From Marsupella aquatica (Eukaryota; Plantae; Marchantiophyta): a DNA stretch of 64,000 nucleotides. The stretch is taken from the NCBI GenBank assembly GCA_973895155.1, contig OZ316892.1, forward strand, positions 10,210,283 through 10,274,282, written 5' to 3'. A program made the position numbers and the translations under genes. Positions within the stretch are counted from its first letter, which is position 1, and each line of letters begins with the position of its first letter. Of this stretch, positions 5,091 through 58,891 are shown in pieces. The notes below the pieces were generated by a model. That model saw nothing but the letters and a program-made list of their open reading frames with translations. It was not told the DNA's origin and did no database searches.

Positions 5091-5235
5091 AAGGGCGTCA
5101 ACTCATTTTCTAGGACCAACTTTCCATGCAAGCTCCAGTGCACTGACCACCCAAGTTAATGGCCGTTCCGTTTAGGTGGTCAGTGTACGGGAGCTTGCAT
5201 GGAAAGTTGGTCCTAGCAAATGAGTCGATGCCCTT
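5091..5235. repeat. Long inverted repeat (MITE-like or hairpin) between divergent genes
   Basis: Left arm aagggcgtcaactcattttctaggaccaactttccatgcaagctcc...ctgaccacc pairs with right arm ggtggtcag...ggagcttgcatggaaagttggtcctagcaaatgagtcgatgccctt. Arms are ~60 bp with a 27 bp perfect core. Confidence 0.8.
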
Positions 5236-5504
5236 TGAACTGACCACCCAAGTTAGTGGAACCGCAGATTTTTGACCCGCAACCAAGTCCAAAGTATTCT
5301 GGTCTCCTTGGAAGAGCTGGTTTGAGACTCCCTATTAAAGGTTTGTGGAAGTATAGATATACACTTTTTATATACAAAGGGACCAATCAGAGTACAAATG
5401 AACAAACAAAAGAGGGCCCAAGTGGACAAAACTAATCGAAAAAGAAGTGAGCAAAAGGGAACCACTAAACACCAAGAAAGAGGAACTAAAAGTAAGAAAT
5501 GAAC

Positions 5505-5647
5505 AATAGGGAACCCCTAAAAACCAAGAAAGAGAGACTAAAACTAACCCAAGCGAACAGCTAATGTGACAAAAAGAATAGGGAACCCCTAAAAACCAAG
5601 AAAGAGAGACTAAAACTAACCAAGCGAACAGCTAATGTGACAAAAAG
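5505..5647. repeat. Tandem duplication of ~72 bp
   Basis: aatagggaacccctaaaaaccaagaaagagagactaaaactaacc...aagcgaacagctaatgtgacaaaaag occurs twice back to back. Confidence 0.85.
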
Positions 5648-5979
5648 CTACCGGTCTACTGGTTTGTGGAAGTGAGGTTTGACTTCCAGCTCAGATGTAA
5701 GCTTGCTCTGAAGATAATGGCACCAAGTGATCGAGGGTGCATTCTCTGCTGCAGAAGATCTTTTCGGTTTCGTCCCCTCTCGTGGGCTTCCCTGTAGGCT
5801 GTTCATCACTATGGAGTAACGTTGAACTTTCAACGCAGGAACGCATCGAGTGCCACACTCATCGGTAAAAGATCTTCTGAGTTTCGTCCCCTTTCTTAGG
5901 CAACGCATCTTTGTCGAGTGAAGTCGAACTTCCCAAGGAAGCAAGAAAGAAAGAAGCGATCGAGTGTCTCGTGAGAACA

Positions 5980-7143
5980 ATGGAGACAGCGCAAACTGAG
6001 AAGCTAGCGGAGGAGAGAGTCATCAAGTTAGTGCTTCTGGGATGCGGAGGGGTTGGACGCCATCTTCTCCAGCGAATTCTCACTACCCGTGCTCTCCACG
6101 CATCCGCAGGATTGCATCTGGCAGTGGTGGCAGTGTCGGACAGCAAGGGCGTGGTTCTGAGTAATAAGGAACTTGTGGATTCGGTTCTGAACAAGATCAT
6201 CTCAGCTAAGACGGTGAATATTTCCCTCTCTCAATGGTATCATTCGTCACCCAACGAAGCACATTGTGAATACAAGGCAGTTGCTGGACATGAGGCCACT
6301 CTTCAGCTCTTGAGGACTTGGGGCTTACCAACTGTTGTGGTGGACTGCACTGCGAGCGAGGAGATTGGAGAACTGCTTGGTGTAGCTGCAGCTGAGGGAT
6401 TTTGCGTTGTGCTTGCCAATAAGAAGCCAATCACTTCTACGCTGGATGTGTATGACCAGATTACTTCTCATGGTCGGCATTTTCGCTGTGAGTCAACTGT
6501 GGGAGCAGGCCTACCGGTCATGGCCACGTTGTCTCGTACATTGGCTGCCGGAGATCCCATCCATCGAATAGTGGGGGCCCTCAGCGGGACGTTGGGGTAT
6601 GTCATGAGTGGGTTGCAGGATGGCCGACTTTACAGTGAAGTTGTGGCCACTGCCAAAAACCTTGGCTATACGGAACCTGATCCAAGAGATGATCTGAGTG
6701 GCTTGGATGTGGCACGGAAGGCCCTCATCATGGCTCGAGCTATTGGATGGCGCCTTGATCTGGAGGATGTGGAGGTGGAGTCTCTGTACCCTGCCGAAAT
6801 GGGACCTCAGAGCATGACTCTTGTAGAATTCTTAACGAAGGGATTATCCTCACTCGACACATCGATGCATCAACGGGTTCAAGGAGCTCAAGATAAGAAA
6901 GCTGTACTACGATATGTTGCCACAATAGAAAACAGTAAGTGCAAGGTAGGCTTTATGGAGGTTTCTCCTGATTCTCCTCTAGGAAGACTTCGTGGGAGTG
7001 ATAACTTGGTGGAGATTTATACGGATTGCTACAGAGAGGCTCCATTGGTAGTTCAAGGGGCAGGGGCTGGCAATGACACCACTGCTGCAGGTGTGCTTGC
7101 GGATATAATTGATCTGCAAGATCTGTCCAAAATTTTGCTTTAA
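5980..7143 (+). CDS. Monofunctional homoserine dehydrogenase (intronless; first ATG at 5980)
   Basis: Rossmann motif LLGCGGVG, plus VVVDCTAS, VVLANKKP, ESTVGAGLPV, SGTLGYV, LGYTEPDPRDDLSGLDVARKALI and QGAGAGNDTTAAGVLADI, all characteristic of homoserine dehydrogenases. Confidence 0.93.
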   Translation: METAQTEKLAEERVIKLVLLGCGGVGRHLLQRILTTRALHASAGLHLAVVAVSDSKGVVLSNKELVDSVLNKIISAKTVNISLSQWYHSSPNEAHCEYKAVAGHEATLQLLRTWGLPTVVVDCTASEEIGELLGVAAAEGFCVVLANKKPITSTLDVYDQITSHGRHFRCESTVGAGLPVMATLSRTLAAGDPIHRIVGALSGTLGYVMSGLQDGRLYSEVVATAKNLGYTEPDPRDDLSGLDVARKALIMARAIGWRLDLEDVEVESLYPAEMGPQSMTLVEFLTKGLSSLDTSMHQRVQGAQDKKAVLRYVATIENSKCKVGFMEVSPDSPLGRLRGSDNLVEIYTDCYREAPLVVQGAGAGNDTTAAGVLADIIDLQDLSKILL

Positions 7144-15908: not shown

Positions 15909-18009
15909 CTTGTTCTCACTGCATGTTTGGGGACGGTTCTCCTTAGTTTACTACGTACTGCTTCAGAGCTCGCTTCAGAGCTCACTTCAGAGCTCACGTC
16001 AGAGCTAGGCCACACCGAGGACCACAGCGATCGACTTCTAATTGACTGTGACCTCGTGCCAGTCAAAGTTATTGTTTCGTAGAGAAATAGTCCAACTGAG
16101 ACTGGGTTCTCAGTGTGTGGCCCCTAATGATGCATGGCTCGCATGCAGCCGGCCCCCAACCGCTGCCTTACTTCAATTCCTCCTTCAGTTCACGTGCTTG
16201 ATTCCTTATTTGTGTTCTTTGGGAGCGGAACTTCCTAAGCTGAAATTGCAAATTGCAAAATTTTCCCTTCCCCATCTTCTTCGTTCTTTCTTGGGTGAGG
16301 GTACTGTCCCGGGATTTCCGGGAGTTAAGGGTTTAGGGTTTGTACCCTAACGTTCTGGAACCTGGTGCACTATTGACTCGTTGATGGAGTAAGTAAAATT
16401 AGGTTGCAAGGACTTGTGAGGGATATACTTGATGGGACCCTAAATTGAAAAGTGCTCCTTGAGGGACCCCATGAGGCCCCATCCATGAGGTTTTTGGGTA
16501 CACTGATTAAGGTCCATCAAAGGTCTGGATCACTGATGGGGTCCATTAATACCTTCCATGTTGGGAATCCATCAAATATATCTGTGAGTGACTTAATTAT
16601 TGATTGAAAGAAGTGAAGTTCGATTTGGTTGTGATGGGATCTCAGCTGGAACCTGTATCCCAAGGTATGCTATTTCAATTCAAAGTATCGTTACCAGATT
16701 TTAGGCTACTTAATTGTTGATGTAAAGAAGTTAATTGCCAGGTTGATTGAAAGTCTCTTATCAACAAAGTAAGACTGTAAGGTAACTCTAGTGGGGAGAG
16801 TTTTGGCAAGAGTATTGTGTATAGCTAGACAGTGTTCTTGGCTTATAGCAGCTAAATGCTCAATGTGGTGACCTTGTAGCCTTTGTCCAAAAAGTTTCCT
16901 TCGTTAAGGTAGCAAATCCAACTGCAGCTAATGGCAACTTTTGTTTAGTATTTCTTTTCCTTACATTCTTTCTATAATTTTGTCATGAGCTGGAGAGAGA
17001 AGCATTTAGCTGATAAAAAATCACTGCAAACAACAATTACTATCGTAGTGCCATCCACTTGTGCAAAAAATGATTAAGTATTGAAAATTTGTGTCTGACT
17101 AACAAAATATTTTTTTCCAGTGCTTATAAAACCTCAAAAGAATTTTGATTATAAACACTGACTTTGCAGTGTATGTATTATATTTAGAATTAAAAACACT
17201 AGTAGAAAATGGGGCCTTTTATGACTATGACACATATGACTTATGTGCTCAAATGACAAAATATGTAAATGACATAACATAAATGACATTGAAATGACTG
17301 TCCAAAATGACGGGGTGCAAAAAATGACTAATACTTGCAATAGTGTCATTTAAACCAATGAGCCAAATGACTTTGACTGCTATAATGACAACAATCATGA
17401 GTTGTAGTCATTTTGGACAGTCTTTGTGAATGACACAATTAACAAAAACTCTGTCATATCAGTGTTTCACATATGGGAAGTCATTTCAGACGACGGTGAC
17501 TAATGACTAATAAATCAAATATGCAAATATCAGTGTTTAAAAATGTTAGTAGTCATTTAAACCAAAAGTGATAAATGACATGATAAACAACATATGACTA
17601 TTTTGAGGTTTATGGTTTAGTATATGTTTTAGGGTTTAGGGTATGATTAGTCATCCAAAATGTATGGTAGTATATATAAAGACTAGTGGCACTCACATAT
17701 TAGATTTGAAATACATTTAGAGACCTAACAAGCCTTCTTTTGTTGTGAGTCTCATCATTAAATTGATGTACAACTTAAAGGCTTGATAATCTCTAATAAG
17801 TATGTACATTTATATATACTTGCACCCATTTATTACATCTTTCCTATATATGTCAAGGACTCCTGAAGTGTTTACATTCCTTAAGCTGTATTCACATTTC
17901 ACATGTTGGAGTATATATGGGGGCATGCAAGGTTGCCAAATAACACTCTCGGGCATAGGTCTAGGGTTTAAGGTTTAGAATTTAGCTACTACATGCCTAT
18001 ATTTGCTCA

Positions 18010-20290
18010 TGTCATTTTTTTCAATATATTATTCATGTTATTTGCAAAGGATTCCCAATCATTTTTGCTCTCACTCAACTTTCTAGTCATTTGACAAGTG
18101 CCGCTAGATGTCATTTATGCAAATGTCATTTGGGATGTCAATGTTGTGGTCATGTATGCCATGCAGAATATGACTCTTAAGAGCCTTTGGTGCCTGATTG
18201 ACCCCATTGGTGATAGGGGCCGGCCATTAAGGATGATACCCACTTCACATGGTGCAGGATAGGGTACTTGACAACCCTGGGCCACTGGTTATACCATTTG
18301 GCCTCCACAACACTTTTTAAAATACACATTTTGCATCATGGAAGGGCATCACCCAACTTTGGGCAAAACACTCCCAAGTTTTTATGACTTTGGAGTCATT
18401 TGCCCAAAGGGGTGCAAATCATTCTAATTTGGTTATTTGCAAGGGATCTTGAGTCATTTGTGCATCTGACTAAAGGTTTTTGTCATTTGTGGAGTGCCGA
18501 GGGGTGTCATTTAAGTAAATGACATAAATATGAGTCATTGATGATGTCAATGCGGCAGTCAAGCATGCCATGGACAATATGACTCCTTGGGGCCTTTGGG
18601 GGCTTATTCGCAATATCTGTGATCGCAGCTGGCCATAAGGGATGCTACCCACTCCACATGGTGCGGGATGGGGTACTTGTACACCCTGAGCCACTAGTTA
18701 TGCCACTTGGCCTCCACAACACTTTTTTAAGCACACATTTTACATCATGGAAGGGCATCACCCAACTTTGGGCAAAACACTCCCAAGTTGTATGACTTTG
18801 GAGTCATTTGCCCAAAGGGGTGCAAATCATTCTAATTTGGTCATTTGCAAGGGATCTTGAGTCATTTGTGCACGTGACTAAGGGTTTGTGTCATTTAGGG
18901 AGTGTTGGGAGACGTCATTCATGTAAATGACACAAAAATAGGTCATTCATGATGTCAATGTTGCAGTCATGCATGCCATGGACAATATGACTCTTTGGGG
19001 CCTCCGCAGGTTGACTGGCCATATCCATGATTGTAGCCCACCATTAGGGATGCTACCCACTCCACATGGTGTGGGATAGGGTACTCGACAACCCTGGGCC
19101 ACTAGTTATACCACTTGGGCTCCACAAAGCTTTTTAAAACACACATTTTGCACCTTGGAAGAGCATCACCCAACTTTGGACAAAACACTCCCAAGTTGTA
19201 TGACTTTGGAGCCATTTTCTTGAAGGGGTGCAAACCACTATTGCTTGGTCATTTGGAAAGGATTTAGAGTCATTTGTGCGCATGACTAAGGGTTTTTGTC
19301 ATTTTGGGAGTGCCGAGAGACGTCATTCGTGCAAATGACACAAAACTCAGTCATTCATGATGTCAATGTTGCAGTCATGCATGCCATGGGTAATATGACT
19401 CTTTGAGGCCTCCGGGGGTCGACTGGCCATATCCATGATTGTAGCCCACCATTAGGGATGCTACCCACTCCACATGGTGTGGGATAGGGTACTCGACAAC
19501 CCTGGGCCACTAGTTATACCACTTGGCCTCCACCAAGCTTTTTAAAACACACATTTTGCACCTTGGAAGAGCATCACCCAACTTTGGACAAAACACTCCC
19601 AAGTTGTATGACTTTGGAGTCATTTGCTTGAAGGGGTGCAAACCACTATTGCTTGGTCATTTGGAAAGGATTTAGAGTCATTTGTGTGCATGACTAAGGG
19701 TTTTTGTCATTTTGGGAGTGCCGAGAGACGTCATTCGTGCAAATGACACAAAACTCAGTCATTCATGATGTCAATGTTGCAGTCATGCATGCCATGGGTA
19801 ATATGATTTGTTTGGGCCTTTGGGGGCTGATTGACAATATTTGTGATTGTAGCCGGCCATTAGGGATGCTACCCACTCCACATGGTGCGGGATAGGATAT
19901 TCTTCAACCCTCGACCACTAGTTATGCCACTTTGTCTCCTAAAGGTTTTTTGTAGCCAACTTTTTGCACCAAGGAAGGACTATGAGATTCTTTGGGCAAA
20001 ACACTCCCACGTTGTACGACTCAGTAGTCATTTAGCTAAAGTGGTCCATATCACTCCCATTTGATCATTCCCAAGGGATTCCGAGTCATTTTGAAAGTGA
20101 GTGCACTTTTTGGTCATTTGTGGAGTCCTATAATACGTCATTTATGCATTTGACATGAAAATGAGTCATTATTGATGTCAATGCGGCAGTCACGCATGCC
20201 ATGGACAATATGACTCTTTGGGGGCTTGGACGCTGATTGGTCATATTGGTAATAGGAACCCACCATTAAGGATGCTTCCCGCAAAGAATG
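18010..20290. repeat. ~408 bp tandem repeat, about 5.5 copies, inside CACTA element 1
   Basis: Anchor motif gggatgctacccactccacatggtg at ~18230, 18639, 19047, 19455, 19863 and (partial) 20269. Units are rich in GTCAT/ATGAC. Confidence 0.9.
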
Positions 20291-20984
20291 TATTGCATTT
20301 GGCAATTATGGAGTGCCGTGAGTTTAGGTTTTGGGCAATGACATCAAAACAAGTCATTTATGTTGTCAATCCTAGGAGTGAGGACTATGAGATTAGTGAT
20401 TTAATATGTGAGTGACTAATTTTATGAGAATGTCCACCAAATGACTTCCTCACTTAGGTAATTGCAACGTCATTTGGTGGGTCAATGAGGATGTACATCC
20501 TAAACCTATGCGCGCATATGTTTGTAATTTATTTTGTGTTATATACTATTTGGGAATTTTGGCACCTAGGTTTCCACATCAATGGGTTTCAAAGGCCACC
20601 AGTAAATTAAGTTTTTGAGTCACTGGTTATTGTAGATGGTAATACATACTTGTGACAAGTATTTGTGTCATCAAAAAAACATTTGCCCCCAAACTTCCTC
20701 CATCTCCTAAAATTGATTGGCGAGGGGAAACATCCTAGTAAAATTGACGGCAACGGGAAACATCCTAGTAAAATTCCCGTTGCCGTCCCAAAGCCTTATT
20801 TGCTGACCATGTGTCATCTTGTCATGCCCCGGCCCTATCTTCCTTGGATCCCACGAAACAACGCCCGGCCACATGGATCCCATTTTCCCATAAGAAATTC
20901 AGACCTGGGTTTAGGGTCGCCTGTTCAGTCACACCGGTCACACAAGTCACAAGTTCACGTTGGGAGTTAAGGTATTCTCGTGAA

Positions 20985-21200
20985 GTTGAGCAGCGAGTGG
21001 AGGTGCGAGGTCACTGCTGCGAGTTGAGGTGCGAGGTCGCTGCTGCAAGATCGGTGCTGAGCGGTGAGTTGAAGTACGAGATTGCTGCTGCGCGCAACCT
21101 CGGTGCTGAGCAGTGAGTTGAGGTGCAAGGGCACTACTGTGAGGTCGCTACTGTGAGATTGCTACTGTGAGGTCGCTGTGAGGTCGGTGCTGCGTTTTAG
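20985..21200 (+). repeat. GC-rich short direct repeats, probably in the non-coding leader exon of element 1
   Basis: Recurrent gagttgaggtgcgaggtcgctgctgc and actgtgaggtcgct units in a CpG-rich island within an otherwise CpG-poor element. Confidence 0.6.
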
Positions 21201-23223
21201 GGTGAAGGAGCTGAGGTCCGCTGCGCCTAATTTTCTGATCACATTGTGAGTTCCCTTACGGACTTGGAACTCCTCACAGGTGCCCTTACTTACTGCCACC
21301 ATTCAGTTCATGAGCTCGAGTCGTGGTGACAATTTTTGAGCCCATTTCTGAGTAGAGGATCAAACATTGGGTTACGAAGTGGGTGCATTGAAGCTCCGTT
21401 TGAGGTGTGGTTGTGTTGGAGTTGGAGCTACAGACAAAGATTAGGTCCTGAGCAGCAGTCGCAAACAATTGAGGAGCACTGGACGTGATACGAGGTGGGG
21501 GCCGCTTCATTTCATTGCTGTGGTAGTTGGCATATTACTTGCACCTTGGCTACCTCGTTTTTCTTTTTGGCATCGATTGTTATTGCTCTGAGTTCTCTCT
21601 CTGTTTTGCTTCAAAACTCTGTCCATTTTGTGGTGCCTCGCTTGTACAGCAGGAGAGTTCCTTGTATAGCAGGCTCAGGGACTTCGACTGTCTTTCATTG
21701 TGTGTTGTGTTATGGGCTGCAAGGTGAGAACTGCGCTCCACATTGGCGAGGACGGGATCCCTTTCTTTCAGTTTCAGTGAAGGGCCGAGCTACGACTGAA
21801 ACGCCTTTACCTGCTGCCATTTAAACCGCTCTGAGCTCCTTGAAGCTTGGGTTATCAGGTAAGAGTATGGATCTACATTGCCCTTATTTGTTGTCCTCTT
21901 TGAATATGTACATAGCTCTACCTGATGGGGAGTATGTCTGTACACTCAGCTAGAACCAAGGCAAGTGGTTGCAATAGTGAATGAATGCTACTATCGGCCA
22001 CACAAATGAATTCATTCAAGTTGAATGTTTGAGACATTCTCTAAAGTTTTACGGACTTTGCTTATATATAACCCGGCGTTTGCTCTTCCGTAAGCTTTGA
22101 CTATTTATTATTGTGCGACGTGAGATTGTATGAAGGTGGGAGCTGCACTCCACACTGGCAAGGACAGGAAGGTTTTTTTTCTGTTTCCAGTGAACGACAG
22201 AGCTGCAACTAAGGTAGAGCTGTGCTACGTTCTACCAAGGCAGACATTGGACCTGCAAGTTTCAGTTCGAGTGAAGGACAGAGCAACTCAGGTACAAGCA
22301 AGCTGCTAGTTCGATTAACTGAGTTGCAAGCGACTTCCAACATTCAGTGAGACTGCGAGTGATTGGAGCTACGACAAGAGCTGCAATCAACATGGGCGGA
22401 CATTGGACCTACATTGGACATTGTGTCCCCATCAGTAGAGTGCACAAATCCTGCTTAATTTGCATTTTGGTCCTGGCCTGGCTTGCTTTGTGGTCCTATG
22501 CACTGTGCATCCTTTGTGTCTCCATGGAATATCAAATAGTTACATAGTCTCTGCTCTGAGTACAGTGTTGTGCATTATTGTTTCATCGAGCTCCTCAAGA
22601 CAGTACCAATTTGTAGAGCAGCATGTAATGCTAGGTTTGAACACCAAGGACCAAGTAGTTTTTACAGAGTCTCGGGTACAGAGCCTATGTATGAAGAGGT
22701 CAAAGGCATGAGGATTTTTCTTTAGTACAGAGTTCCTGGGATCTACAAATAATTCTTGTACATGGACAAAGTATTTCTCTGTAGATTTGTTTTTAGTCTG
22801 CCTGACTGCAGCCACTTTGCTGTCCTTCCATTCCACTCCAATGTTTGTAATTTTCTCAATCTATTGAGCCCGTCAACTCAATCGCTGCTACTTTGTTTAT
22901 TTTCAACAACTTTGATAGAACACAAATTAAATAGATAGCCAGTGTGAGTCAACAAATTTTCAGAGAGTAAATCCATCCCTGGATTTTATCTCAAAGAACC
23001 ATGTTTAACTTTTTGCTCTTTGTGCAGAGCACGCAAGAAGCATTGCCAAGTTATTGTACTCTGTGAAACTTAGGTGGGCAGGACATCTGTTGATTTGGAC
23101 TTTTTGCTCTCTCACGGTAAGTACACTACACACACGCTCTTCTTGTTTGTGTCTTGCCCCTCTCCATAAACTTCTTGTAATATTCACTTAGGTAATTGTG
23201 CAGATCCACACATCACATCGGGC

Positions 23224-23922
23224 ATGGCACGGGCTGCTGCTGCCTGGCTGGATCCAAAGTTTGCCCATAAAGAGCACCTTCGCATGGATCCCCCTTGTTG
23301 TTTTGAATGTGATGAGGGAGGTACTGTGTTGTTTTGCGATGGGCCTTGCAGTCGTCATTTCCATTACTTAGTTGATGGGCAGAATCCTGAGGACCCTGAT
23401 GGCCATGGGCCTGAGTGCACACTCGTTGCCATTTCTAGAGGGCATGATTGGGCCAAGGAGTGGCTCTGTGACCTATGTCAGCAGAAGCGAGGTCGTTGCT
23501 TTGCTTGTGGGCTGCTTGGCCGAATTTTGAATCCCACTACAGATGAGCCCCTTGTGGTCCAGTGTGCACAGGATGACTGCTATTCCTTTTATCATGTGGG
23601 TTGTCTGCGGACTATACTGAAGGCGAGGGAGTTGCCTCTGATAGGGTACCCAGAGAACCCAATTGCACATCCCGCTGCTCTGATATGCCCAAGGCATTAT
23701 TGTGATGTTTGCAAGGAGTATCGGGATGGCATCTGGGAATTTATCCAGTGCCGTAGGTGCCCTCGTGCATGGTGCAGGGATGAGGGACCAGAGGCAGACA
23801 AACACCTGAAGAGAGGGGTGAAGGGTAGAGAAATGTGGGATATTGGTCCATGGCGTATGGTGTACTGCAATCACCATGTCATTCCAGAGGGTCCTGATGT
23901 GCCACCTCATGATTTCAAATAG
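23224..23922 (+). CDS. Multi-PHD zinc-finger protein (EDM2/NSD-like composite PHD) carried by CACTA element 1
   Basis: Intact 232 aa ORF: CFECDEGGTVLFCDGPCSRHFH...C...WLCDLCQQKRGRCFACGLLG...QCAQDDCYSFYHVGC...ICPRHYCDVC...QCRRCPRAW. The Cys/His spacing matches the tandem PHD cassette of plant EDM2 and animal NSD proteins, recognised by eye. Confidence 0.8.
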   Translation: MARAAAAWLDPKFAHKEHLRMDPPCCFECDEGGTVLFCDGPCSRHFHYLVDGQNPEDPDGHGPECTLVAISRGHDWAKEWLCDLCQQKRGRCFACGLLGRILNPTTDEPLVVQCAQDDCYSFYHVGCLRTILKARELPLIGYPENPIAHPAALICPRHYCDVCKEYRDGIWEFIQCRRCPRAWCRDEGPEADKHLKRGVKGREMWDIGPWRMVYCNHHVIPEGPDVPPHDFK

Positions 23923-24253
23923 ACCATAAGCCTTCAATTGTGTAGGAAACACTGCATAGTACAAAGTATACTAAACATAAAAGGGGCTAAGGACTTATGG
24001 AAGTATACAGGTTTTAAAATGGACTAAAGGACTACAGTGGAACACCAGACCTTTTGGTTTGATGAAAATGGAGTGAAGTGTCAAGTTGGATTGAATGGAC
24101 TAAACTGTGAGATTGTATGAAATGGGGTAAATTGTCTGATGGACTAAACTCAAATGGACTAAACTATCTGATTGTATGAAACATTTGGTTGAATGTTAAA
24201 GTGTTTGCATGGGTTCCCGGATAAAATTTTGGCTTTTTGTATTTGTCACAGTA

Positions 24254-24700
24254 ATGCCAAGAACACTCAGCAGCTTGGAAGCTGACCTTGAAGGCAGAGC
24301 TGAGAGGCTACTCCTGAAGCAGAGTGGAATGAGGTTGGTCCCTGGCAGCTCTGCTGTGAAATGGGAGTTTTTGCCTGTACAGAGAGACACGCACAGTCGG
24401 CCCATTACTCTAGATGCTCCACCCTTGCCCATAGGTTTTTGTATTGTGGCAGTCAAAAATGGAGTGGTACAACCAGAGCAGATATGCTACTCTGCCTGTA
24501 TCCACAGTTGTGAGGATTTTTGCCCAAAATGTCGAGTGCGCCCAGGGGATATATATAGGCGAGATGGACATAGTAGAGTGCAGAGGAGGTGTGCCTGTAT
24601 AATGTTTCACCATGATGAGCCGGTCTTGGGACCAGGAGTTGAGACTGTTTGCCCAAGAGTAGAGCAGCACTTAGTGGAGAAAGACCAGTATCAATTCTGA
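24254..24700 (+). CDS. Small Cys/His-rich protein of unknown function in element 1 (148 aa)
   Basis: Open frame starting just after a ttgtcacAG acceptor. The C-terminal half has CYSACIHSCEDFCPKC...RRCACIMFHH...CP. Confidence 0.5.
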   Translation: MPRTLSSLEADLEGRAERLLLKQSGMRLVPGSSAVKWEFLPVQRDTHSRPITLDAPPLPIGFCIVAVKNGVVQPEQICYSACIHSCEDFCPKCRVRPGDIYRRDGHSRVQRRCACIMFHHDEPVLGPGVETVCPRVEQHLVEKDQYQF

Positions 24701-25691
24701 TTGTATGATGACTGTTAGAGTGTGGCAAACATATGAAGAGCCTTAATGGAGTTACATAACAAAAAAACTAAAAAACATCACACTGACATCTGAGGCAAGA
24801 CCTAAAATCCACCCAAGGTCTGTAAAATTGTGTTGTCTCTTTGAGGGATCTGGCCATAAGAAGGCAAACTTCACTTAATGTCTCTAGTTTTGTAGTACTG
24901 CCTTTGTAAACCCACAGCCTTAAGAAGGAGTTGAACCTGGGTCTATGAACTTTATTATTTTTTATAATTTTGAACATTGAGTGTGTATTTCATTCTTACT
25001 ACTGCACAAAAACACTATATGTTAAATTATGTACATTACATGACACCCTTTCAGGCCCTTGTCCATATGTATCCTAGTTTTGTGTGGCGATGATGAAACA
25101 TTGTGATCATTCTGCCTGTTTGAAGAGGATCATTTCAACAAATGAATTCAAAAGTCAAAGAATATATGAAGGAGGCTGGGGATTGTTGGACATTATGATT
25201 AATGTTTGTATTGTACTCATTGTTTTGAAGGGTCTGAGATTGCTGACTACTGTGAACACCCTTGGCGTAAATCTGGTTCAGGTAGGCCTTTATTTTGTCT
25301 TGTAAACTTATGACATTTTGCTTTGTACAATTCAAGTCTCCTTCAAATAACCATTGCCACTTACTATTAATATGAAATGAGATTAGGTGACGTACCCAAG
25401 TAAATAATTTCTGATCAAATTGCTAGTATGTCATATGTTTACCTGTTGTTGGCATGCATGTACTATTCTATTGGCAATGAAGGGTAAAGTGGGAGCTGCC
25501 TTTACCTCAGTTGGAGTATTGTACCTCAATTGTATGTCTATTCTTCACTTGTGCACACATTTGCTTCACATGACGGTCTAGAGGATGGTATGGAAGAGTT
25601 TTGGAGTTGTCTAAAACAAATTCATATGCTCTACAAGATATCACAGAAGGTAGATGTGCAACTGTGTTTTTGATTAGGTAGTGCTGCAATC

Positions 25692-28600
25692 ATGGCTTCT
25701 TCTAGCCAGGCTGGATCACATAACACTGCACATACAACAGAGGCAGACAACCTAAGAACTTTACCTCTTTCCCATCCTAGTCGAATACAACATCGTGATG
25801 ATAACTTATGGGCTCGGGAACAGATAGCTTGCTCTGGTAGTGCTGATCATAGAATGTATTGCTCTTGCATGCAATGCAAAGGGATTGTTAAGACTACTCA
25901 AAAGACCAGTCGACAACATCTTCTTAAGAATGGCCGCTACCCTGCCTGTCGAGTGTGGGTAGGAGAGGGTGAAGATTCTTCTGATGAGGAGTGGAGATCC
26001 AATTACATCCGTAACTCTGGTCCAGAGGCACTGAGGGCAGGAATGTCTCGAGAGGCATTCCACTCAGGCCAACCAGCAATAGACATTGAAGAGCAGGTCA
26101 AAGTTTTGCTTCAAGAGACATTGGCAAGAGCTTCTGAAGAGTCTGACAAATTTGTGGATAATGATCCTCCTTTTGATATGGATTCAATGTTTCAAAATGA
26201 TGAGATTGAGGTAGATCCACCCTCTGCTGAGACCAGTCATGAGGACACACCTACAGAAGGGCGTCCTATGAATCCTGTCCCTTTGCAAGGGTCTTTAGAA
26301 GAAGCCATGAGACCATTATTTCCAGGCAGTAAGACAGATGTAGTTTCCTTCATGTTGTTGTTTTTAAACATCTATCACAACAATAGGTTCTCAAACACGG
26401 GAGTGAATGCTATGCTGTCTTTGTTGACTGAGCATGGAATGCCAACAGAGCACACTCTCCCTAAGAACCTATATGCTGCAAAACAATTAGTGAGAAAATT
26501 GGGTTTAGACTATGAGAGAATCTCAGTCAGTGAGAATGGATGTATGTTATTTAGAAATGAGACTGCAGAGTTGGACAATTGTTCCAAGTGTAATCAGCCA
26601 AAGATGAAGTTAGTGGGGAATTCTTTACAGCCTGTGAAGGTCTTGAGATATTTCCCTATAATCCCTCGGTTGAAGAGATTGTATGCCACTAAGGGTACAT
26701 CTAAGCTAATAACTTGGCATCATGAGAACAAGAGCAAGGACAACATGGTCCGACATCCAGCAGATTCAAAGGCATGGAAGCATGTGGACACAGAGATCGA
26801 CCCTACTTTTGCTGCTGAGCCAAGGAATGTGCGAATGGGATTGGCACTTGATGGGGTAAATCCATTTGGGAATAATTCTACTGCCTGGTCTACATGGCCA
26901 ATCCTGCTGTTGAATTATAATATCCCTCCTTGGCTTTCCACAAAGAAGTTCTTTGTCATGCTGGCTCTTCTAATTCCAGGTCCTGTGTCTGTAAGCGAGG
27001 AATAATTTGATGTATACATGGCTCCACTTGTGGATGATCTTGAGACATTATAGTCAGAAGGAGTAGACTGTTTTGATGTTCTACCAAGGCTAGGATTGCA
27101 GCAACAATTCAAGCTAAGGGCTTCAATATTGTGGACAATCAATGATTATTCTGCATATGGATTAGTCTCTGGACAACAACATGCAGGTACAAAGGATGTG
27201 TGGTTTGTGGGCCAAATTGTGTGGCACATGGTTCAAAACAGTTGGGCAAGTTACTGTTTGCTGGCCATCGTTGTTGGTTACCATAGAGACACTATTTTTG
27301 CAAAGAGGAAGTGGCAAAATACTTTAATGGTGAGGTAGAGGCACGAGCTGCACCGTGTAGAGTGTCCAACTCTGATAGGAAACGTTGGGGAGAAAAGGCC
27401 GCTAAATATGTGGAGAAGAAACTAGGGAATGCACTGGATGATGAAAACTCTCCAGTAAAGAAGAATGGAGTGAAGAGGGTTACTGGATTATACAAGCTGC
27501 CGTACTGGAGTGTAAGTATCTGGTTCCCCATACTGCTTCCCTCAGTGTGTAATGTTAAGTAGCAAAGAGTAACATTTCTTATTCTAATTTAGTTTGTACT
27601 GAACTGTGCGTCCAATGCAGAAACTTCTCATCAACCATTGTTTGGATCCCATGCACTGTGAGAAGAATCTTGCACACAACATTGTGCACACTATTTTGGG
27701 GATAAAGGATACTCCTTCTGTTCGAGAAGACATGAAGTCATGGACGTGCGGGAACACCTGTGGCTGGTTTCAAATCCAGATCCAAAAAAAGATTCAAAGA
27801 TCATGCCGCCAGCCCCATACTGCCTCAGTAAGACAGAGAAGACTAAGTTCTTAGAGGTATTGTTGACCTTTAAAGGGCCCACTGGTTTCAGCAATTCTCT
27901 GGCTAAATGTGTCACAGTTAAGAAGAAGTTATCAGGGCTGAAATCTCACGATTTCCATCACCTCATGCAACAAATCCTTCCATTGGCAACAATGGGATTA
28001 CTTGATGAAGGTGTTCGGTTGGCCATAGCAAGAGTGAGCAATGTGTGGCATACCATCTGTGCCAAGGTTTGGGATCCCTCACAGTACGACTCTGTGATGA
28101 TGGATGTTGCATTCACACTCTGCCTTATGGAAATTCATTTCCCACCAAGCTTCTTTGATGTCATGACCCATCTATTGATTCATCTGGTTCAGGAACTAGA
28201 CATCTGTGGTCCAGTGAACATTAGATGGATGTACCCAATAGAAAGATATCTAAAGACCTTGAAGGGTTATGTTCGAAACAAGGCACGTCCAGAGGCTTCT
28301 ATGCTGAAGGCTACCTTCTGGATGAATCTTTAGGATTCCTTTCTGAATACATGATCGATGTTAAGGGGACAGGAATGAGAACGTGGGACTTGGAGGAGAA
28401 TCCTGGTGTTGCAAGCATTGTCTTGGAAGGAGCTGGAAAACAGATCACCTTGGAGTGGAATGATATGATAGCTATGCATCATTACATACTAGAGAATGAA
28501 GAGTTGGTGGAACCATGGTATAGGTATGAGCATGGTTTATATTGTTAAGTTCTCGATCTGTTGTTTTTTTAAAACAGAATTGAGTTTTGAGCAGAAATTG

Positions 28601-29479
28601 TGTGGGCCTAGGAGCTGACTATCATTATTGCCATGCAGGGTTTATGATGATCAAAAGGAGGCAGTTACCAAGCACAGAGCAGATTTCCGGAAAGAATGGA
28701 TGAAGAATCCAGGAAATCGGAGGAATCCTGTGCCTTATCCCTCTGATTTGGATGAGTTACCTCCTTTTAGAGAATGGTTTGAAGTGACAATTAGAAGGCA
28801 TAATTTTGTGAATGAGTTTGAACGAATGGTGTTGGCAGCATATAGTGTACCACCTAGTCTGAAGGCACTACGGTATAGGGCCTGCAGAGCCTATGGGCAC
28901 CATTGGAGGACCATTCCATCACTAGGTTCCTTGATTGATTGTGACTCATCTGGGTTCAAGACTTTTGATTCTGGGATGGCTTGTACATTCACTGAGAAGC
29001 GGGTCATTAGGTTAGGGGCAACAGTAGATGAATCTGTACAATATGTGGGGGTGTTGACAGACATCTTAGTATTGAACTATGGGCCTCTGATAAAGGAAGT
29101 GGTCCTTTTCAAAGGAAGGTGGGCAAACTCATCTTGGACTCCCAAAGCCACTGCAAGTATGAGATATGATGCGTCTGGATTGTGGCAAGTAAATTTTCAG
29201 AAGGAGCTAGGTGCTTCCAAGAAAATGGACTATGTATTGCCATGACAGATAGAACAAGTGTTTTTTTACCCAAATGATAAGGGGATTGCATGGAGGACAA
29301 TCCTCCACAAAGAATCCAGGTCTACAAGGGTGTTGGGTGATTACATGGAAGTTGATTTCCATGATACTATGGATGACAATGCTAAGTTTCACATAGAGTT
29401 GGCAGAAGCCTGTACAACTAGACAGGAGCCTGGACCAAGTACTACAGACAAAGAAAAAAGAAAGTATAAAAGGAAATGA
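25692..29479 (+). pseudogene. TnpD/Tnp2-type CACTA transposase (transposase-associated, Transposase_21, DUF4218 and DUF4216 regions), disrupted
   Basis: MYCSCMQC..HLLKNG; LRYFPIIPRLKRLY; RHPADSKAWKH; PRNVRMGLALDGVNPF; LDPMHCEKN; GLKSHDFH; FPPSFFDVMTHLLIHLV; GPVNIRWMYPIERYLKTLKGYVRNKARPE. In-frame stops (e.g. 27003, 29243), frameshifts (~27190, ~27740, ~28300) and introns at ~27512-27620 and ~28523-28638. Confidence 0.9.
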
Positions 29480-29563
29480 ATGGTTTGAAGATACTGTACA
29501 GTCCGGTTTTATTTAGTTGGGAGTGGGATCATACTAACATGGCATGTCATGGTCTAGCAGTGA

Positions 29564-32549
29564 ATGGAGCGAATACCTCCATATGAGGAGGAACGAAATC
29601 AGAAGGTAGCAGCCAAGAATAGAAAATTCAGGGAGATATTTGGATCAAATTTCAATTTCATGTGAGTATAATCTTGCATGTTGTTTTGAATGTGCAAAGA
29701 TGTGTTAACATTGCTCATCAGCAATATTAGATGATTTTTGGTACTTGTCATTCATGAATTGATATTCTCTGATATAGATTGGGTGCAACACAGACCGTAG
29801 GGCGCAAGAAGGAAACAAGTGCACGTCAAACTCCTAGAAGTGAGGTTACCACACAGAGGAGACAGAGTTCCAGACTGTAAAGAATTGCCTCAGTGAGTAT
29901 GGCAGAGTCTGGTGATGAGGGCTCTGAATCAGATTATGACACTGATGTTGAGTACAGTGAAGATGAGAAACCAGAAAGTTCATCCAAGGTGAGATTCCTA
30001 TTACATTTCACCAACATTATGAGGAAACTATAGACATTGGTAGTGATTTTGTTTAATAACATTGGTTTTAACTTGATCTGGACAGGAACATCTGCAACCT
30101 CCATCTAAGAGCTTGGTAGATGCAAAAGAAACCCCTACAAAGGTTGGACCTTCAATGAGTGGCATGGTGCAATGTTACAAAGACCCTATGACTGGCCAGC
30201 TATTTGAATGTAAGTAATTTCAAAGATTTTCAATGTATTTTTCAATGTTGATCTATATGAATGTTGGACTCATAACTTCAGTGGTTTGCATGTGTATAGT
30301 GGTGGTTCCATCAACATCGATTGGAAAATCTGGACACTTTGCAGTAGTGACATCCAGTCAGGGTTAAGGTAAGTCAATTTCAATGAAGCCTCCTAGGTAT
30401 TATATTGTAATATTTATTGTCCCTCATTTTGCAATTGTGGATGATCAATATTGGATGCTCATTGTGTATGTAGAGGGAAGAAAGACTGCAACAGAGCAAC
30501 GTAGGGAATCTAGGCAAGCCAAGAAACAATTTCAGAGAACCGGTAGTGCAAGAAGGGCTGACAATAAGAAGGGAAAATTGATAACGGTAAGATTTTCATT
30601 GCACATTTCACATTGTGGCCTATAATTTGTGTACTCAGAAACAATTGGGTGTTTGTTTCATTCCCAATGTTGATGACTATCATTTGTGGTGTTTTTTTTC
30701 AGATTCATGACAATGATATTGATGATTCTCATCCTAATAAACCATATTGGATGGAGGAGCTACGTGCCAATGTCTTGAGGCTTTTTGATGTATCAAAACC
30801 TGATTGGAACAAACAAGATCCAAACATAATTGAGGATATGCAGAAATTGATGGAGGCAGATTGGGAGTATCCAGATAAGCAGTCAGTGTCTGACAAGAAA
30901 TTTATTAGTCACTGTCGGACGTTATTGAAAAGAGAACGTCACAAACTAAATACTTATTGGAAGGATGTATGTAAACGTGATCGCTCCAAACCAGGACCTC
31001 AATATGTTGACCCATTGAAATGGGCACGACTGGTGGATCATTTTGATAGTCCTGCTTTGCTTGCAAGGAGTGCTGTGATGAAAGCAGAAGTGGTGAACAA
31101 AGAGCATTTTGGAAGAGGGGGGGCTGCTGGAGCAGAAACAAGATTGGTAAGAATCTTCAGATGGTCCATCTCACTGCAGGTCTAGATTGTCATTTGAATT
31201 GAAGTGTTTATCTAGTATAGGAATAAACAATGACATGATGAGTTCTCATTAATATTCCAATTGCTTTGAATGTGATTATGTGTTTCCAGAAAGCAAAAGG
31301 AATGATGAGCCCTGTTATATCAAAACTTGTGTCTAGTAGTCCAGTCCCCTCAGTGCAGATCAGTCCATCTATGGGCAGTGGTGAACATCGAGGCAGTAGT
31401 TTTGTTGGAATTGGATCTGCACATGGATCAGCGGTATGTAATGAAAACCTGTGTATATATTCAATTTTGATTATCAGTTATCCATGATGTTCAAATTATC
31501 ATTGATGATTAACATTGTATGGTGTGTTTGTGTATGTAGACTCCATTGTCTAGGGAAACTACAATTGAGGAACCAGCTCGATTACTCAAGCTTGAACAGT
31601 TTGTGGAGAATTTAACCAAGCTTGAGTTCAAAGTAGACAATTTGACATCTATGATGACCTCTTTCATTGCACAAAATCAACAGAATCAGTTTCATATGCA
31701 ATTATCAAATGCAATTGTTACTAAGGTGGTGGTTGAGCCTAAAGGTAGTAGCAGGAAACGTTCTCTTACTTTCTCAGGTGATGGTAAGAACATACAAACT
31801 TATACTCTAAATATATTACATATGCAATAGTTTATTTTTCAATTTAGTATGAAGTTTTCTAAGCATTCATTGTTTGGTTTTGTGGTAGCTTCTTCAGGGG
31901 AGAATCTTGTATCACAGCGAGAGAAATCAGATACTTTAACAAGGCAAAAGCCAAAGCCAAGTATGGGAGAAGCAAATTTGGGAGCACTGCAGGAACCTTG
32001 CATTGTACAAAACAACATTGGTAATGGTGAGAGTGATGAGATTGCTATCACAGATGAACAGATAGTGTCAAATGCAATTCAGGAACAAGAGGCTACCTAG
32101 GCCTTCAAAGAGATTCAAGAAATCAACCCCTATCACTATCTCACCTAGTGAACGAGGACCAGTTCTCTCCCCAAATCCAGCAGCAAAGGTGAATTTGTTT
32201 TCAGTTGGCTTATGTTCTTAAATTGATGATATGCCCAAATTAGTACTACAAGACAGTATTTTGTCCTAACAATTTTGTGTGGCAGTTTTCAAAAGGAGAT
32301 GCTGTAAAAGTACGAAGCGTTGTGGATCGCTCTACAGTTGTTGCTAGAGGTGAAGTGACAGGGTTACCAGGAGAGGATAAATTTCATTGTGTCATGATTG
32401 AGAGTCCTTGGGTGCGAGTATCAGTTAAGGCAGTGTATTGTGGTGATGCAGCATTGCCAATGCCCAACAAAGAAGAGAAACAACTCTGTTTACGGAATGT
32501 GTTAGGAATGAATACATTGTGGAATGCTAGGTTTCTTCGGAAGTGTTGA
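29564..32549 (+). pseudogene. Multi-exon TnpA/ORF2-like gene of element 1, probably disrupted
   Basis: N-terminal PYEEERNQKVAAKNRKF. Transposase_24-like exon (RTLLKRERHKL...PQYVDPLKWARLVDHFDS...HFGRGGAAG). C-terminal VARGEV...HCVMIESPWVRVSVKAVYCGDAALPMP resembles En/Spm ORF2 C-termini. Exon boundaries are only approximately resolved. Confidence 0.7.
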
Positions 32550-32657
32550 ACATTTTCTCTGATCATGTAGAACAGAGAATTTTTGAATATTTTGGTTACC
32601 ATTGTTTCACTCATGCGAGTGAAAAATGTGTACTTTCTATCACTTCATCATAAAGAC

Positions 32658-32800
32658 TTCTGTTTTTTCAATTGTTCTATACTAGAGCTTGTGAATGTTG
32701 GAATGTGAATTTCTGAATACAATGATGATTTCTGTTTTTTCAATTATTCTATATTAGAGCTTGTGAATGTTGGAGTGTGAATTTCTGAATACAATGATGA
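32658..32800. repeat. Tandem duplication of ~72 bp
   Basis: ttctgttttttcaatt.ttctata.tagagcttgtgaatgttgga.tgtgaatttctgaatacaatgatgat occurs twice. Confidence 0.8.
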
Positions 32801-32908
32801 TGCGCAAAGTGATGTCTTTGTTTAGGGTTTTAAGTGGATTCATTGTATGTGATTTTGAATATAACTATGAGCTCTTCTTAGATACATCCCAAATGACATT
32901 ACTTAAAA

Positions 32909-33195
32909 ACACCCTGTATGACACCCTCAATGATACCCTCAATGACACCCTGTATGACACCCTCAATGACACCCTATATGACACCCTCAATGACACCCTG
33001 TATGACACCCTATATGACACCCTGTATGACACCCTGTATGACACCCTCAATGACACCTTGTATGACACCCTCAATGACTCTCAATGACACCCTATATGAT
33101 ACCCTCAATGACACCTTGTATGACACCTTGTATGACATTTTTAATGACACCATGTACGACACCTTCAATGACACACTAAATGACACCTTAAATGA
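32909..33195. repeat. 12-bp minisatellite (ATGACACCCTGT / ATGACACCCTCA), ~23 copies, subterminal in element 1
   Basis: Seen directly. It explains the spurious DTLY, TPSM and RVSY ORFs. Confidence 0.92.
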
Positions 33196-35936
33196 TTTAT
33201 TATTGTGTCATTTATGACATGTCTGAAATGACATATAATGACAACCGTGCGTAGTTGCCACGTGTTGTAATATGATTTGTTTAAATATGTGTCATTAAAG
33301 ACATGCCTAAATGACTGACGGCCGTTCATTCAGTCATTTAGGACAATATGTCATTTCAAAAATATTGTGTCATTTAGGACTACCATAAATGACTGGTGAG
33401 AGTTTTAGTCATTTGTCTTAATTGACTGTCCTAAAAGACGAAGCAGGTATGACAGAAAAGCTCTAGTCATATATTGGTACATATGACTCGTTTTTCAGTC
33501 CTCATTCTAGTCATTAAGGACACTATTTTCCACTAGTGAAAGTAACAAGAACAGGCAAATATGTTTAAGCTTACTTACAAGCATTTTAAGGACCACAAAC
33601 CATTTGACTTGGAAAGTAGGATTAATGGCATCTGAATCTGAGAGTGCAAAAGTTGGAGCGGGTTTAGGGTTTAGGGTACCAGAAAACTCTGGTGAGTCTG
33701 GTTCCTGGCTTCCTGGGATCAGGTTTGCTCAAATAGTACTTATTTATTGAAGATTACATTCCCTAGGACAAGACTTTTCTGGGAGTTTTTAATGCATTTT
33801 AATATTCTGCCTTACTTTAGAGCAAAAGGTAACACTATGCCCATCATGTTCACAGACTGGACTCAACATGGAGTCCTCGTCAACCTGGAGAGACCCAAAC
33901 AAGATTGAAGGCTCATATATCACCCCAAACTGTGAACCTAAATATGACCGAGAAGAATATATCTAGGGTTAGTTGCTGGATTTTCAAGATTTCAATCTAG
34001 GGTAGCCGGATGTTGATACATATTGTTTAGGGATATGACCGAGATTTTTTGCATTTTCTTGATTGGGTTTGGTCAACACCCCCTTACACTAACAAAACCC
34101 AATTTCAGTAACAAAACCCAGCTGGGTTGGAGATGCAATAACTCTAGACTGGACTGGCAAACACAATTGCCACAAGTCATGGGACCCATCTTATACACAA
34201 CTAACCCAAACCATTTATTTCTTGAAGCCAAAGGCAAACAGGCAAATATGGGCAAGGAAGCATTCAACCACCTTCCTTGCCCATGGATCACACTAAAATT
34301 GATCCATGCATTCACTGGTCTGTTCTTTGTCAATTACTCTTTTGCCCTTAGTTACCATACAAGTGTGCTTTGTGCCTGGAGGAAAGGGGGACCCCATTCC
34401 ATACAAATTATTTTGCCTCCAAGAACACAAGTCTAAAGTAGAATTTGTGTTGGTCCTTAACCTTAATTAAGGCCTGCTCATTCCTCCCTAGGCCACAATA
34501 TCGAAAGAATCTGGTGTAGCATAAAGAAACGCAAAGAATGCATAAAACTTCAGGAGTGTTTTTGGAACTTGAGAAGTTTCACATGGTGCGCATTTTAGTG
34601 ATATTCTAAGTAACTTGCTGTAGAGCACTGATTTATCATTACCAAAAAATTTATAATGCATATTTTACATGCCGTTAGCTCAGGGCATAGCTGATCGCTA
34701 CAACTGTAGACTGCTAGTGCGAGTACCGTCAGATATCACCACTCCTTGCCCGTCAGAAACTGGCATGTCTCTTTGGCAGCTTTGTCATGCTCCCTCACGT
34801 CAGTAGAATAGGCAGCGAGCACTAAAAAACAATTACCAAATATTTTAAAAAATAGCAGACAGTAAGCACACTCTAATACCTATGTGTCCTGTGAGTCAGC
34901 AGAATGAGCGTATGGCTGCTGATGAGTGAGGGTCAATGGTCAATGGTCAATGTGTCCTTCAGTCTTCTATGGCAGCTAGAACTAAGACAATTTAAACGGG
35001 TAGCTGGAAATATGAAAGAAACCAGACCTGAGACACTATGCTGATCACTATGCTGTTTGTGACAAATATTCCTTTGAAAATATGGTGTACAATAATGTGC
35101 AGTTTGGAGCCATTTTCTTGCCCCCATCACAACTGAACTAAAAAGTTTAGTCAATTACAATTTATGTAGGGTTGTTTACATCCAATTTCACATGATAATA
35201 GTTCAAAGGAAAGACCTCCATTATACAAGTCAGAACTGAAGTAATTAACTACATAGAAAAATGCCCATGATGAGCAGTTCCACATTAAAGTGTCATAGCT
35301 ATGAGGGGATATCCACAAATTTATGATGTGTAGGCTATAATGATAGTTACATCATATAGTGATGTACCGAGTCTACGTGGAGTAGAGGCAATGGTAGCCC
35401 TTTCCCTGGGAACAATCAAAGGCTTAATAATTCTCCTAAAAGTAGGATGATGATAAAGTAGCCAATTTTGTCCATGGAACGGTCCTGAGCAGTTTTGGAG
35501 ATTGAACAGTTAGATTCTCTAGCCCTGTTGTTGTTGTTGTGTTTCCTTGGAAGCAGCTGCCAGACTGTTAGGGAGAAGGAATCCAGACTGAAGGGCAAAA
35601 ACATTAAAAAATCACAAATGATTATTATTGATGAGCCCCAACTACCCGTTTTTTGAATGTGAATAGTGAAGAGAATAATAAAAAAATTATCAAAATATTT
35701 ATTTATTTATTAATACATTAATATTCTTTAAAATTAATGAAATGATAATATATTATTTTCCTGTATGTGCACATCAATATTTTTGTGTGCACATTTATCT
35801 TCTATGCACATATGAATGTTGTTGTGAGGCCATAATGCTTGTATTTTTGAATATAATAATTAAATTTTTTTATAAAAATTATACATCATATTCATGTCAT
35901 GAGTTTTTCTCATGCACATGGTGACATAGAGTTACC

Positions 35937-37234: not shown

Positions 37235-37822
37235 TTAATCTTCAGAAATCTTGTAGAGGTCTGGAGTCCAGGCGCACGGTTCCACTGCAGCAGTATCAGC
37301 TTCCACTTCCTTATCTTTCTTAGACTCCGTCTGCTCCAGCTCTTCATTCTCCAAATCTAACAGGCGAAGACACTCTGCTGGAGCCTTTCGACCAATCGCA
37401 GGACCCATCAGAGTCCGACTCAAGCTGTTCTGCAGCTCTTCAGTAGTAACAGGCCCCTCCAGTTGCCCACTCCCGGTCTTAGTCTTCATTTCGCTAGCCG
37501 CCTCCGGAACCGAGGAAGGATCTGGCTTAGGCGCACTGTCGCTGGCCGCTGAAACGTGGAAGCTGTCATTGAAGCTCTTGGGAATGGGGTAAAGAATGTA
37601 CGCCTGACCAGGAACTAGGAGTTCGTCCATTTTCATGATAATCACGGCACGGAATTGCCCCAGAGACGGTTTCGATGTGGAGCAGTGAACTACGGCGTAA
37701 TTTGGATACGTGGCCACCAACTCCGCCACTTGAATAGCATGATCATACGTCTCTATCGTCGCGTCCGGCAGCATCACTTTCACCACCGGACCTCCAGCCA
37801 AACATTTTACCGCATTTCCCAT
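37235..37822 (-). CDS. PADRE/DUF4228 family protein
   Basis: N-terminal MGNAVKC (myristoylation-like), VKVMLPDATIETYDHAIQVAELV...P.Y.V, DELLVPGQAYILYP and C-terminal WTPDLYKISE. Confidence 0.85.
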   Translation of the reverse strand: MGNAVKCLAGGPVVKVMLPDATIETYDHAIQVAELVATYPNYAVVHCSTSKPSLGQFRAVIIMKMDELLVPGQAYILYPIPKSFNDSFHVSAASDSAPKPDPSSVPEAASEMKTKTGSGQLEGPVTTEELQNSLSRTLMGPAIGRKAPAECLRLLDLENEELEQTESKKDKEVEADTAAVEPCAWTPDLYKISED

Positions 37823-58510: not shown

Positions 58511-58666
58511 AATTTGGGTTTCATGCTAACAAATATAAAAGGGTAATAAAACCCCATGTATAAACCAACCTAATTGTTTTTTGAGTTCATTTTTTTTTAA
58601 ATCGCTTTATATATGGCCTAATTTTTCCTAATCATGCCCTACATGCAATGTAATGTGGCAGTGGAT

Positions 58667-58891
58667 ATGTCCTCTTCCTCTGAACTATCCAGTAGTGAGC
58701 ACTCCTCCGATGACGATATACCCCCTCCTCCTCAGCCCGAGGTTACTGGTCCTCGTGGTCCACCCCGAAGACTTTGTGACTGCACCAGATGTGTGGGCCA
58801 AATTTCTCAAAAATCTTATGTGTGTGCTCAACATATTGAGAGATATGGACGTCATAGAGGTCTTACTCCCGGGGCTTCTTCATCCCATATG
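58667..58891 (+). CDS. First coding exon of the element 2 transposase locus (transposase-associated Cys/His domain)
   Basis: MSSSSELSSSEHSSDDD...RLCDCTRCVGQISQKSYVCAQHIERYG, a CxCxxC...H motif homologous to the N-terminus of the element 1 transposase. Ends at a phase-0 GTAAGT donor (58892). Confidence 0.7.

Follow-up and report, generated by a model that had tools for sequence, protein, structure and literature searches.

An En/Spm element with two additional genes

The window analysed here, a 64,000-nucleotide (nt) stretch of contig OZ316892.1 from the liverwort Marsupella aquatica, contains a complete CACTA (En/Spm) transposon, which we call element 1. Its plus strand carries, in order, an open reading frame (ORF) with a PHD_NSD finger, a Cys-rich ORF, the transposase gene TnpD and a ten-exon gene in the TnpA position, and a GC-rich region resembling a 5´ leader lies upstream of all four (Table 1). 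A sequence-only reading of the window had proposed that one promoter and one leader exon serve the four genes through alternative splicing. All splice junctions discussed below are inferred from the DNA.

The features by which CACTA elements are recognised (terminal inverted repeats, a 3-bp target duplication, TnpD domains and subterminal repeats) are all present in element 1. CACTAG stands at 17197 and CTAGTG ends at 33538, the two termini match over 31 nt at 80.6% identity, and AAA flanks the element on both sides, the left flank being a run of A in which such a match is easily obtained. The motif ATGAC/GTCAT occurs 14-30 times per kb at both ends, against 0-9 times elsewhere. In this copy, stops and frameshifts interrupt TnpD and the last gene; both cargo ORFs remain intact.

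TnpD is identified by its Pfam matches to Transposase_21 (E 4e-32), DUF4218 (E 7e-29) and Transpos_assoc (E 1e-4), and has 570 homologs at E <= 1e-40; homologs continue beyond residue 437. The last gene is TnpA by position only: three of its exons gave no Pfam match and its pairwise matches are weak.

Table 1. Features of element 1 and of the neighbouring element 2, with positions counted from the first letter of the window.
Feature	Position	Strand	Basis or remarks
Complete CACTA (En/Spm) element	17197..33538	+	16,342 bp; CACTAG...CTAGTG ends
Subterminal tandem array, rich in ATGAC/GTCAT	18134..20246	not assigned	408-bp unit, 5.2 copies
GC-rich, ATG-depleted leader region with short internal repeats	20985..21858	+	ATG counts, repeats, site scores
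Inferred leader intron, 1,169 nt	21859..23027	+	Donor percentile 99.8; acceptor 23027 percentile 99.95
ATG-free non-coding exon, 89 nt; likely last leader exon	23028..23116	+	Site scores; donor motif kept in diverged copies
Inferred 87-nt intron closing at the PHD acceptor	23117..23203	+	Variable positions spare the splice sites
NSD-type PHD-finger ORF, intact, 232 amino acids (aa)	23224..23922	+	Pfam PHD_NSD, E 9e-9; 3 homologs
Acceptor AG of the Cys-rich ORF	24250..24251	+	Percentile 98.7-99.4; context in homolog P0124
Cys/His-rich ORF, intact, 148 aa, no known family	24254..24700	+	6 homologs; no Pfam or fold match
Candidate ATG-free exon before TnpD, 51 nt	25231..25281	+	Acceptor percentile 97-98, donor 94
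Two acceptors in tandem, 25677 and 25681, ahead of the TnpD start	25676..25681	+	Site scores
TnpD transposase gene, broken here; introns 27512-27620, 28524-28638	25692..29479	+	Pfam Transpos_assoc, Transposase_21, DUF4218
TACTAAC branch-point match (29532-29538) and acceptor of the TnpA-like gene	29532..29560	+	Motif, site score
Gene of ten exons at the TnpA (ORF2) position, disrupted here	29564..32549	+	Frame continuous from ATG 29564 through eight GT-AG introns
Element 2, zinc-motif coding exon with phase-0 donor	58634-58891		C-x-C-x2-C...H motif
Element 2, stop-ended SET exon	59003-59833		Top-scoring phase-0 acceptor 59002
Element 2, TnpD body	60045 on		Top-scoring phase-0 acceptor 60044; frame opens exactly at 60045

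The PHD_NSD match of the first cargo ORF (35.9 bits, curated cut-off 23.9) is backed by Cys and His residues retained in its three homologs, which are 57-68% identical and were found among 65 candidates in a search of proteins of 127-406 aa. The protein model has a pLDDT of 32, the sequence match to NSD2 in the PDB has an E of 0.84, and a PDB profile search gave no match. For the Cys-rich ORF, a full HMMER search returned seven matches, six of them true homologs at 31-55% identity, and C-x-H-S-C-x3-C-x2-C-R is invariant across the homologs; P0130 was discarded as a repeat artefact. This protein (model pLDDT 59) belongs to no Pfam family, Foldseek found nothing at E <= 0.001, its best VIA Z is 4.4, and matches in the atlas are weak. 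An in-frame ATG at 24209 was rejected as its start: it precedes the acceptor, and the homologs P0125 and P0126 start at the methionine of 24254.

The sequence-only reading had taken the cargo ORFs for integrated genes rather than passive captures, and they do not look like decayed captures: both are intact and conserved, and their homologs are intact as well. The homologs are whole ORFs of the same length, not partial host fragments (for the PHD ORF, within the size range searched), and no named host protein is among them. Scans of metagenome and viral sequences yielded no PHD-family locus, and the viral scan yielded no Cys-rich-family locus; marine bacterial matches to the Cys-rich ORF (L081 and L082, E 5e-4) were set aside as chance. 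No PHD or Cys-rich homolog at E <= 1e-3 was found at any of 80 TnpD loci, many of which have little upstream sequence.

A single leader-like region

The proposed leader region was chosen for its GC content, and its ATG content is therefore an independent test. There are two ATGs on the plus strand and 14 on the minus strand (read as CAT); dinucleotide shuffles of the region have a mean of 11.7, and none of 2,000 was as low as the observed two. Across 2,526 overlapping windows of 874 nt on both strands, four ATGs or fewer were found only in nine overlapping windows over 20985-21858, whose own count is the joint lowest. The density of 2.3 ATGs per kb compares with 36 per kb in the gap before the Cys-rich ORF (12 in 329 nt) and 31 per kb in that before TnpD (30 in 977 nt). 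Both gaps are 36% GC and are not leader-like. The GC-rich stretch thus acts like a sense-strand 5´ leader, as had been proposed. The first exon of Spm is likewise GC-rich and repeat-containing.

The strong donor that the sequence-only reading saw at the end of this region, CAG/GTAAGA (the slash marks the exon end), is indeed found at 21859. Donor 21724 scores equally, and further candidate sites are donors 21064 and 21246 and acceptor 21649; the region is probably more than one exon, with one internal intron. In the intron predicted to follow it, the ATG count matches that of shuffles. The modelled leaders leave each of the four ORFs just one or two short upstream ORFs. A 22-codon upstream ORF at 21712-21780 is retained in every leader model, shortened to 16 codons where donor 21724 is used. 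Summed over contigs from public runs, depth across 20424-23193 is much below that over the ORFs.

A probable exon and short intron upstream of the PHD ORF

Acceptor 23027 is the best of its region, and the exon that it opens had been overlooked by the sequence-only reading. Donor 23117, at the end of this exon, is as strong as donor 21859. Copies of the element were compared in contigs from four public runs of two studies, aligned at 80% likeness, and for the stretch between 23033 and 23220 the comparison draws on 40 of 64 rows of variation. Donor 23117 and acceptor 23203 together span 24 positions, and none of the 35 variable positions in these rows falls there (hypergeometric p about 0.006); the variants include a 3-nt deletion at 23187. 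A subfamily of copies whose spacer cannot be aligned retains ...AATTGTGCAG at 17 nt ahead of the PHD ATG.

Conservation among copies had been named by the sequence-only reading as a test of its acceptors; for the PHD acceptor, the rows covered show no change in diverged copies. Since neither site varies in these rows, the most likely partner of the PHD acceptor is donor 23117, the two enclosing the 87-nt intron, and the leader would then have at least two exons. The simpler form of the proposal, one leader exon whose donor 21859 feeds every acceptor, is not supported: the PHD acceptor most likely uses 23117, and the other three have possible local donors. A look at 15 of 131 contig joints, and at four further ones, found no GT..AG ends; the contigs cross introns and termini.

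Splice acceptors ahead of four starts

AG acceptors had been reported just before each of the four starts, and all are present where they were placed. The PHD acceptor (GTGCAG) ends at 23203, ahead of ATG 23224; that of the Cys-rich ORF (GTCACAG) at 24251, ahead of ATG 24254; that of TnpD (TTGATTAG) at 25677, ahead of ATG 25692; and that of the TnpA-like gene (CTAGCAG) at 29560, ahead of ATG 29564. Ahead of TnpD, acceptor 25681 scores above 25677.

We scored these sites with a matrix trained on the acceptors of 13 other introns from both elements of the window. Among 8,135 AGs, the four reach percentiles of 99.3, 98.7, 95.7 and 92.6, where leave-one-out scoring puts the training acceptors at 86-100. 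An acceptor scoring as high lies within 25 nt of only 0.9%, 1.8%, 5.2% and 8.3% of 2,875 ATGs, and combined by Fisher's method the four beat chance (p = 4e-4, or 2e-4 once five acceptors from related loci were added to the training set). The Cys-rich acceptor has a further indication: homolog P0124 retains V-T-V-M across its position, which fits a conserved acceptor and is no proof of the AG itself.

It could be argued that these AGs arose by chance, or that they are passive remnants of host exons that were captured, with random splicing as in Tgm-Express1. By itself, a YAG within 23 nt is weak evidence of an acceptor: 1,303 of the 2,875 ATGs (45%) have one, and all four would have one by chance about 4% of the time. 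Moreover, the sites were picked after the ORFs were known, and captured fragments in a soybean CACTA element retain splice sites and are spliced indiscriminately, according to the available text of PMC1947982. We nevertheless consider this explanation very improbable, given the combined p of 2-4e-4, the splice sites spared among copies, which largely refute it for the PHD site, and whole cargo ORFs without introns that stay intact even in homologs of 31% identity, with no named host protein surfacing among these.

Related loci and a second element in the window

From 80 metagenome TnpD loci, 12 TnpD starts that could be recognised were picked by hand, some of them kin. An acceptor scoring at least 4 lies within 40 nt of eight of these starts, compared with 23.5% of ATGs in the window. 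In grass-type loci, an acceptor ends 9 nt before the ATG of the second gene, and acceptors directly before TnpD and TnpA starts occur in L029, L031, L032 and L049 of this type as well as in element 1. Acceptors in front of TnpD and TnpA thus belong to the normal anatomy of En/Spm, as the related loci show, and the novelty of element 1 lies in its two cargo ORFs.

Element 2 of the window starts at about 53897 and has its SET and TnpD arrangement at 58634-62800. The zinc-motif exon of this arrangement aligns weakly with the TnpD N-terminus (E 5e-4) and is followed by a stop-ended SET exon and then by the TnpD body. Contig L007 has the same order at 4092-7005 (Transpos_assoc E 0.001, SET E 7e-10), with a SET domain 29% identical to that of element 2 and a clear, phase-0 SET acceptor (7.1). 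From the layout of element 2, zinc-SET and transposase isoforms would be expected to exclude each other, and by analogy both layouts would support a shared unit in element 1.

Several other features were noted at these loci. L001 (2947-3180) and L007 (3647-3877) have in common a Cys/Lys-rich ORF of 76-77 aa, with 91% DNA identity over 325 nt, which lies upstream of two different TnpD types, has TTTGTAG directly before its ATG and matches no Pfam family; in L001 it sits between two copies of a 430-nt repeat. Ahead of the first coding exon of element 2, window positions 57500-58510 hold two units of about 460 bp (78% identity), each ending in CAG/GTAAT, which are possibly duplicated non-coding exons. 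A charged ORF of 235 aa at 56048-56755 on the minus strand, inside element 2, points away from TnpD and has no Pfam match. Host genes of the window encode an F-box and JmjC protein (2123-3782), an intronless homoserine dehydrogenase (5980-7143) and a protein with a PADRE domain (37235-37822), a domain that is plant-specific.

One promoter or several

The explanation we favour, with about an even chance of being right, is that one promoter feeds the four ORFs through the choice of alternative 3´ splice sites, an extension of the En/Spm tnpA/tnpD scheme. A promoter near 20.9 kb would drive a multi-exon, non-coding leader, in which 20985-21858, probably with one internal intron, is joined to 23028-23116. 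From donor 23117 (or 21859), splicing could choose 23203 for the PHD ORF or skip to 24251, to 25230, 25677 or 25681, or to 29560, and each choice would put the respective ORF first among the long ORFs of a separate mRNA. Transcripts might end in poly(A) after each ORF or read through into downstream exons, like the long maize tnpD transcript. This model is supported by acceptors that score above chance, by the sole leader-like region, by the spared splice sites of the PHD ORF and by V-T-V-M in P0124.

A number of observations weigh against a shared unit. A possible donor lies near each acceptor: 23117 for the PHD acceptor (87 nt away), 24107 for that of the Cys-rich ORF (145 nt, percentile 98.8), 25282 for that of TnpD (about 400 nt, percentile 94.4) and 29483 for that of the TnpA-like gene (78 nt, percentile 91.0). 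An acceptor before an ATG is therefore no proof of a shared donor. The matrix is small and not specific, since higher scores than those of the four acceptors go to several AGs that lie within ORFs and introns (22190, 22730, 24382 and 24452). Among related loci, four of the 12 TnpD starts lack a good acceptor, and the transposase-body acceptor of L007 is weak (2.8 at best, 1.7 for the phase-0 site). In one copy variant the 87-nt intron is reduced to about 38 nt. Upstream of the PHD homolog P0001 stands VILHIH, where the other frame reads VIVQIH here; going by back-translation only, the AG at that site has probably been lost or moved in P0001. Finally, no AATAAA follows the PHD or the Cys-rich stop, and the motifs that do follow (ATGAAA/AACAAA and TGTA) are present in the leader intron too.

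Given the possible local donors, separate genes, a partly shared unit, or long isoforms that keep downstream exons would also fit. If the genes are separate and merely arranged head to tail, the leader would belong to the PHD ORF alone, and the Cys-rich, TnpD and TnpA-like genes would each have their own short promoter, first exon and 5´ untranslated region intron. In addition to the plausible donors, the local intron already accounts for the PHD acceptor, and Arabidopsis commonly has tnpD and tnpA as split genes that start independently. We regard this arrangement as rather unlikely. The gaps between the genes are AT-rich and ATG-rich and have no leader-like stretch, and use of donor 24107 would add three upstream ATGs within 45 nt of that donor. 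A promoter for the TnpA-like gene would fall inside the TnpD coding sequence; with the acceptor about 80 nt past the TnpD stop, there is little room for both a promoter and a first exon. An in-frame TnpD-TnpA fusion is excluded by the TGA immediately ahead of ATG 29564.

Alternatively, the leader could be shared by the PHD, TnpD and TnpA-like genes, with the Cys-rich ORF (or one of the others) transcribed separately or carried in a 3´ region. Donor 24107 does score well, and the scans found no locus that links cargo homologs to CACTA elements. Against this, the Cys-rich acceptor is in the top two of the four, lies 2 nt from its ATG and has its context kept in P0124; we think a partly shared unit of this kind improbable.

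If the shared unit holds, the PHD protein might, speculatively, read histone marks on the element and support its expression. The EDM2 complex reportedly controls poly(A) choice at intragenic heterochromatin (PMC9292364), and any link between it and the PHD protein of element 1 is purely putative. A broader proposal, which we put forward tentatively and think doubtful as it stands, is that CACTA elements of this lineage use the transposase unit as an expression cassette, with accessory genes as alternative exons behind a shared 5´ exon: a PHD reader and a zinc protein in element 1, and, in element 2 and L007, a zinc-finger-SET writer produced in place of the transposase. Together these would form an anti-silencing kit encoded by the elements.

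Comparison with known systems

CACTA elements have been described as two-gene systems, the two-ORF plan being the standard one (PMC4158355, available text), and recent long-read work frames their coding as two-way splicing or as split genes. The available text of PMC2613891 reports alternatively spliced tnpA and tnpD for maize; that of PMC13547354 reports separate tnpA and tnpD genes as common in the En/Spm families of Arabidopsis, with EN/SPM3 and EN/SPM7 as single spliced genes and SPM2, 5, 6 and 9 as split. Accessory proteins are no novelty in the superfamily: 962 Spm proteins include various ones (bioRxiv 10.64898/2026.08.24.746577, main text), the same text finding TnpA-like proteins apparently confined to flowering plants. 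The word PHD is absent from that main text, and its supplements may list such domains. Our search of titles and abstracts, with Repbase and subscription journals outside its scope, found neither a four-way spliced CACTA unit nor PHD or SET cargo in a plant CACTA element.

If it is real, a four-way unit would show that accessory genes can be gained without new promoters, their output being coupled to transposase output by the choice of splice site. The kinds of cargo, a PHD reader here and a SET writer in the neighbouring element, point to chromatin counter-measures of the sort known for MuDR (VANC) and for fungal elements. In this respect element 1 resembles VANDAL elements with VANC, SET-bearing HarbingerS and MuDR elements and fungal EnSpm elements with TET/JBP (PMC12730594), all of them DNA transposons that encode a chromatin-related accessory protein. 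The available text of that source does not describe PHD or SET cargo in plant CACTA elements or as an alternative exon of a transposase unit.

Tgm-Express1, in which five host gene fragments are randomly spliced into a host transcript (PMC1947982, available text), is like element 1 in having additional coding sequence and splice sites within CACTA ends. The cargo of element 1, in contrast, consists of whole conserved ORFs in an element with its own transposase gene. With Arabidopsis EN/SPM2, 5, 6 and 9, element 1 has in common non-overlapping ORFs placed head to tail on one strand; unlike those elements with their independent starts, it has no second leader-like region and only about 80 nt from TnpD to the next acceptor. 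Its closest parallels are maize Spm/En and EN/SPM3 and EN/SPM7, with which it shares CACTA ends, the 3-bp duplication, repeats in the subterminal regions, a second gene of several exons after TnpD, and a splice acceptor immediately ahead of each start. Unlike Spm/En, element 1 has a probable leader of several exons, a last gene that is TnpA by position, and two extra intact ORFs with their own acceptors between leader and TnpD, which would give four products and not two. Element 1 is best described as an En/Spm unit to which two conserved accessory genes have been added, probably by way of a shared multi-exon leader.

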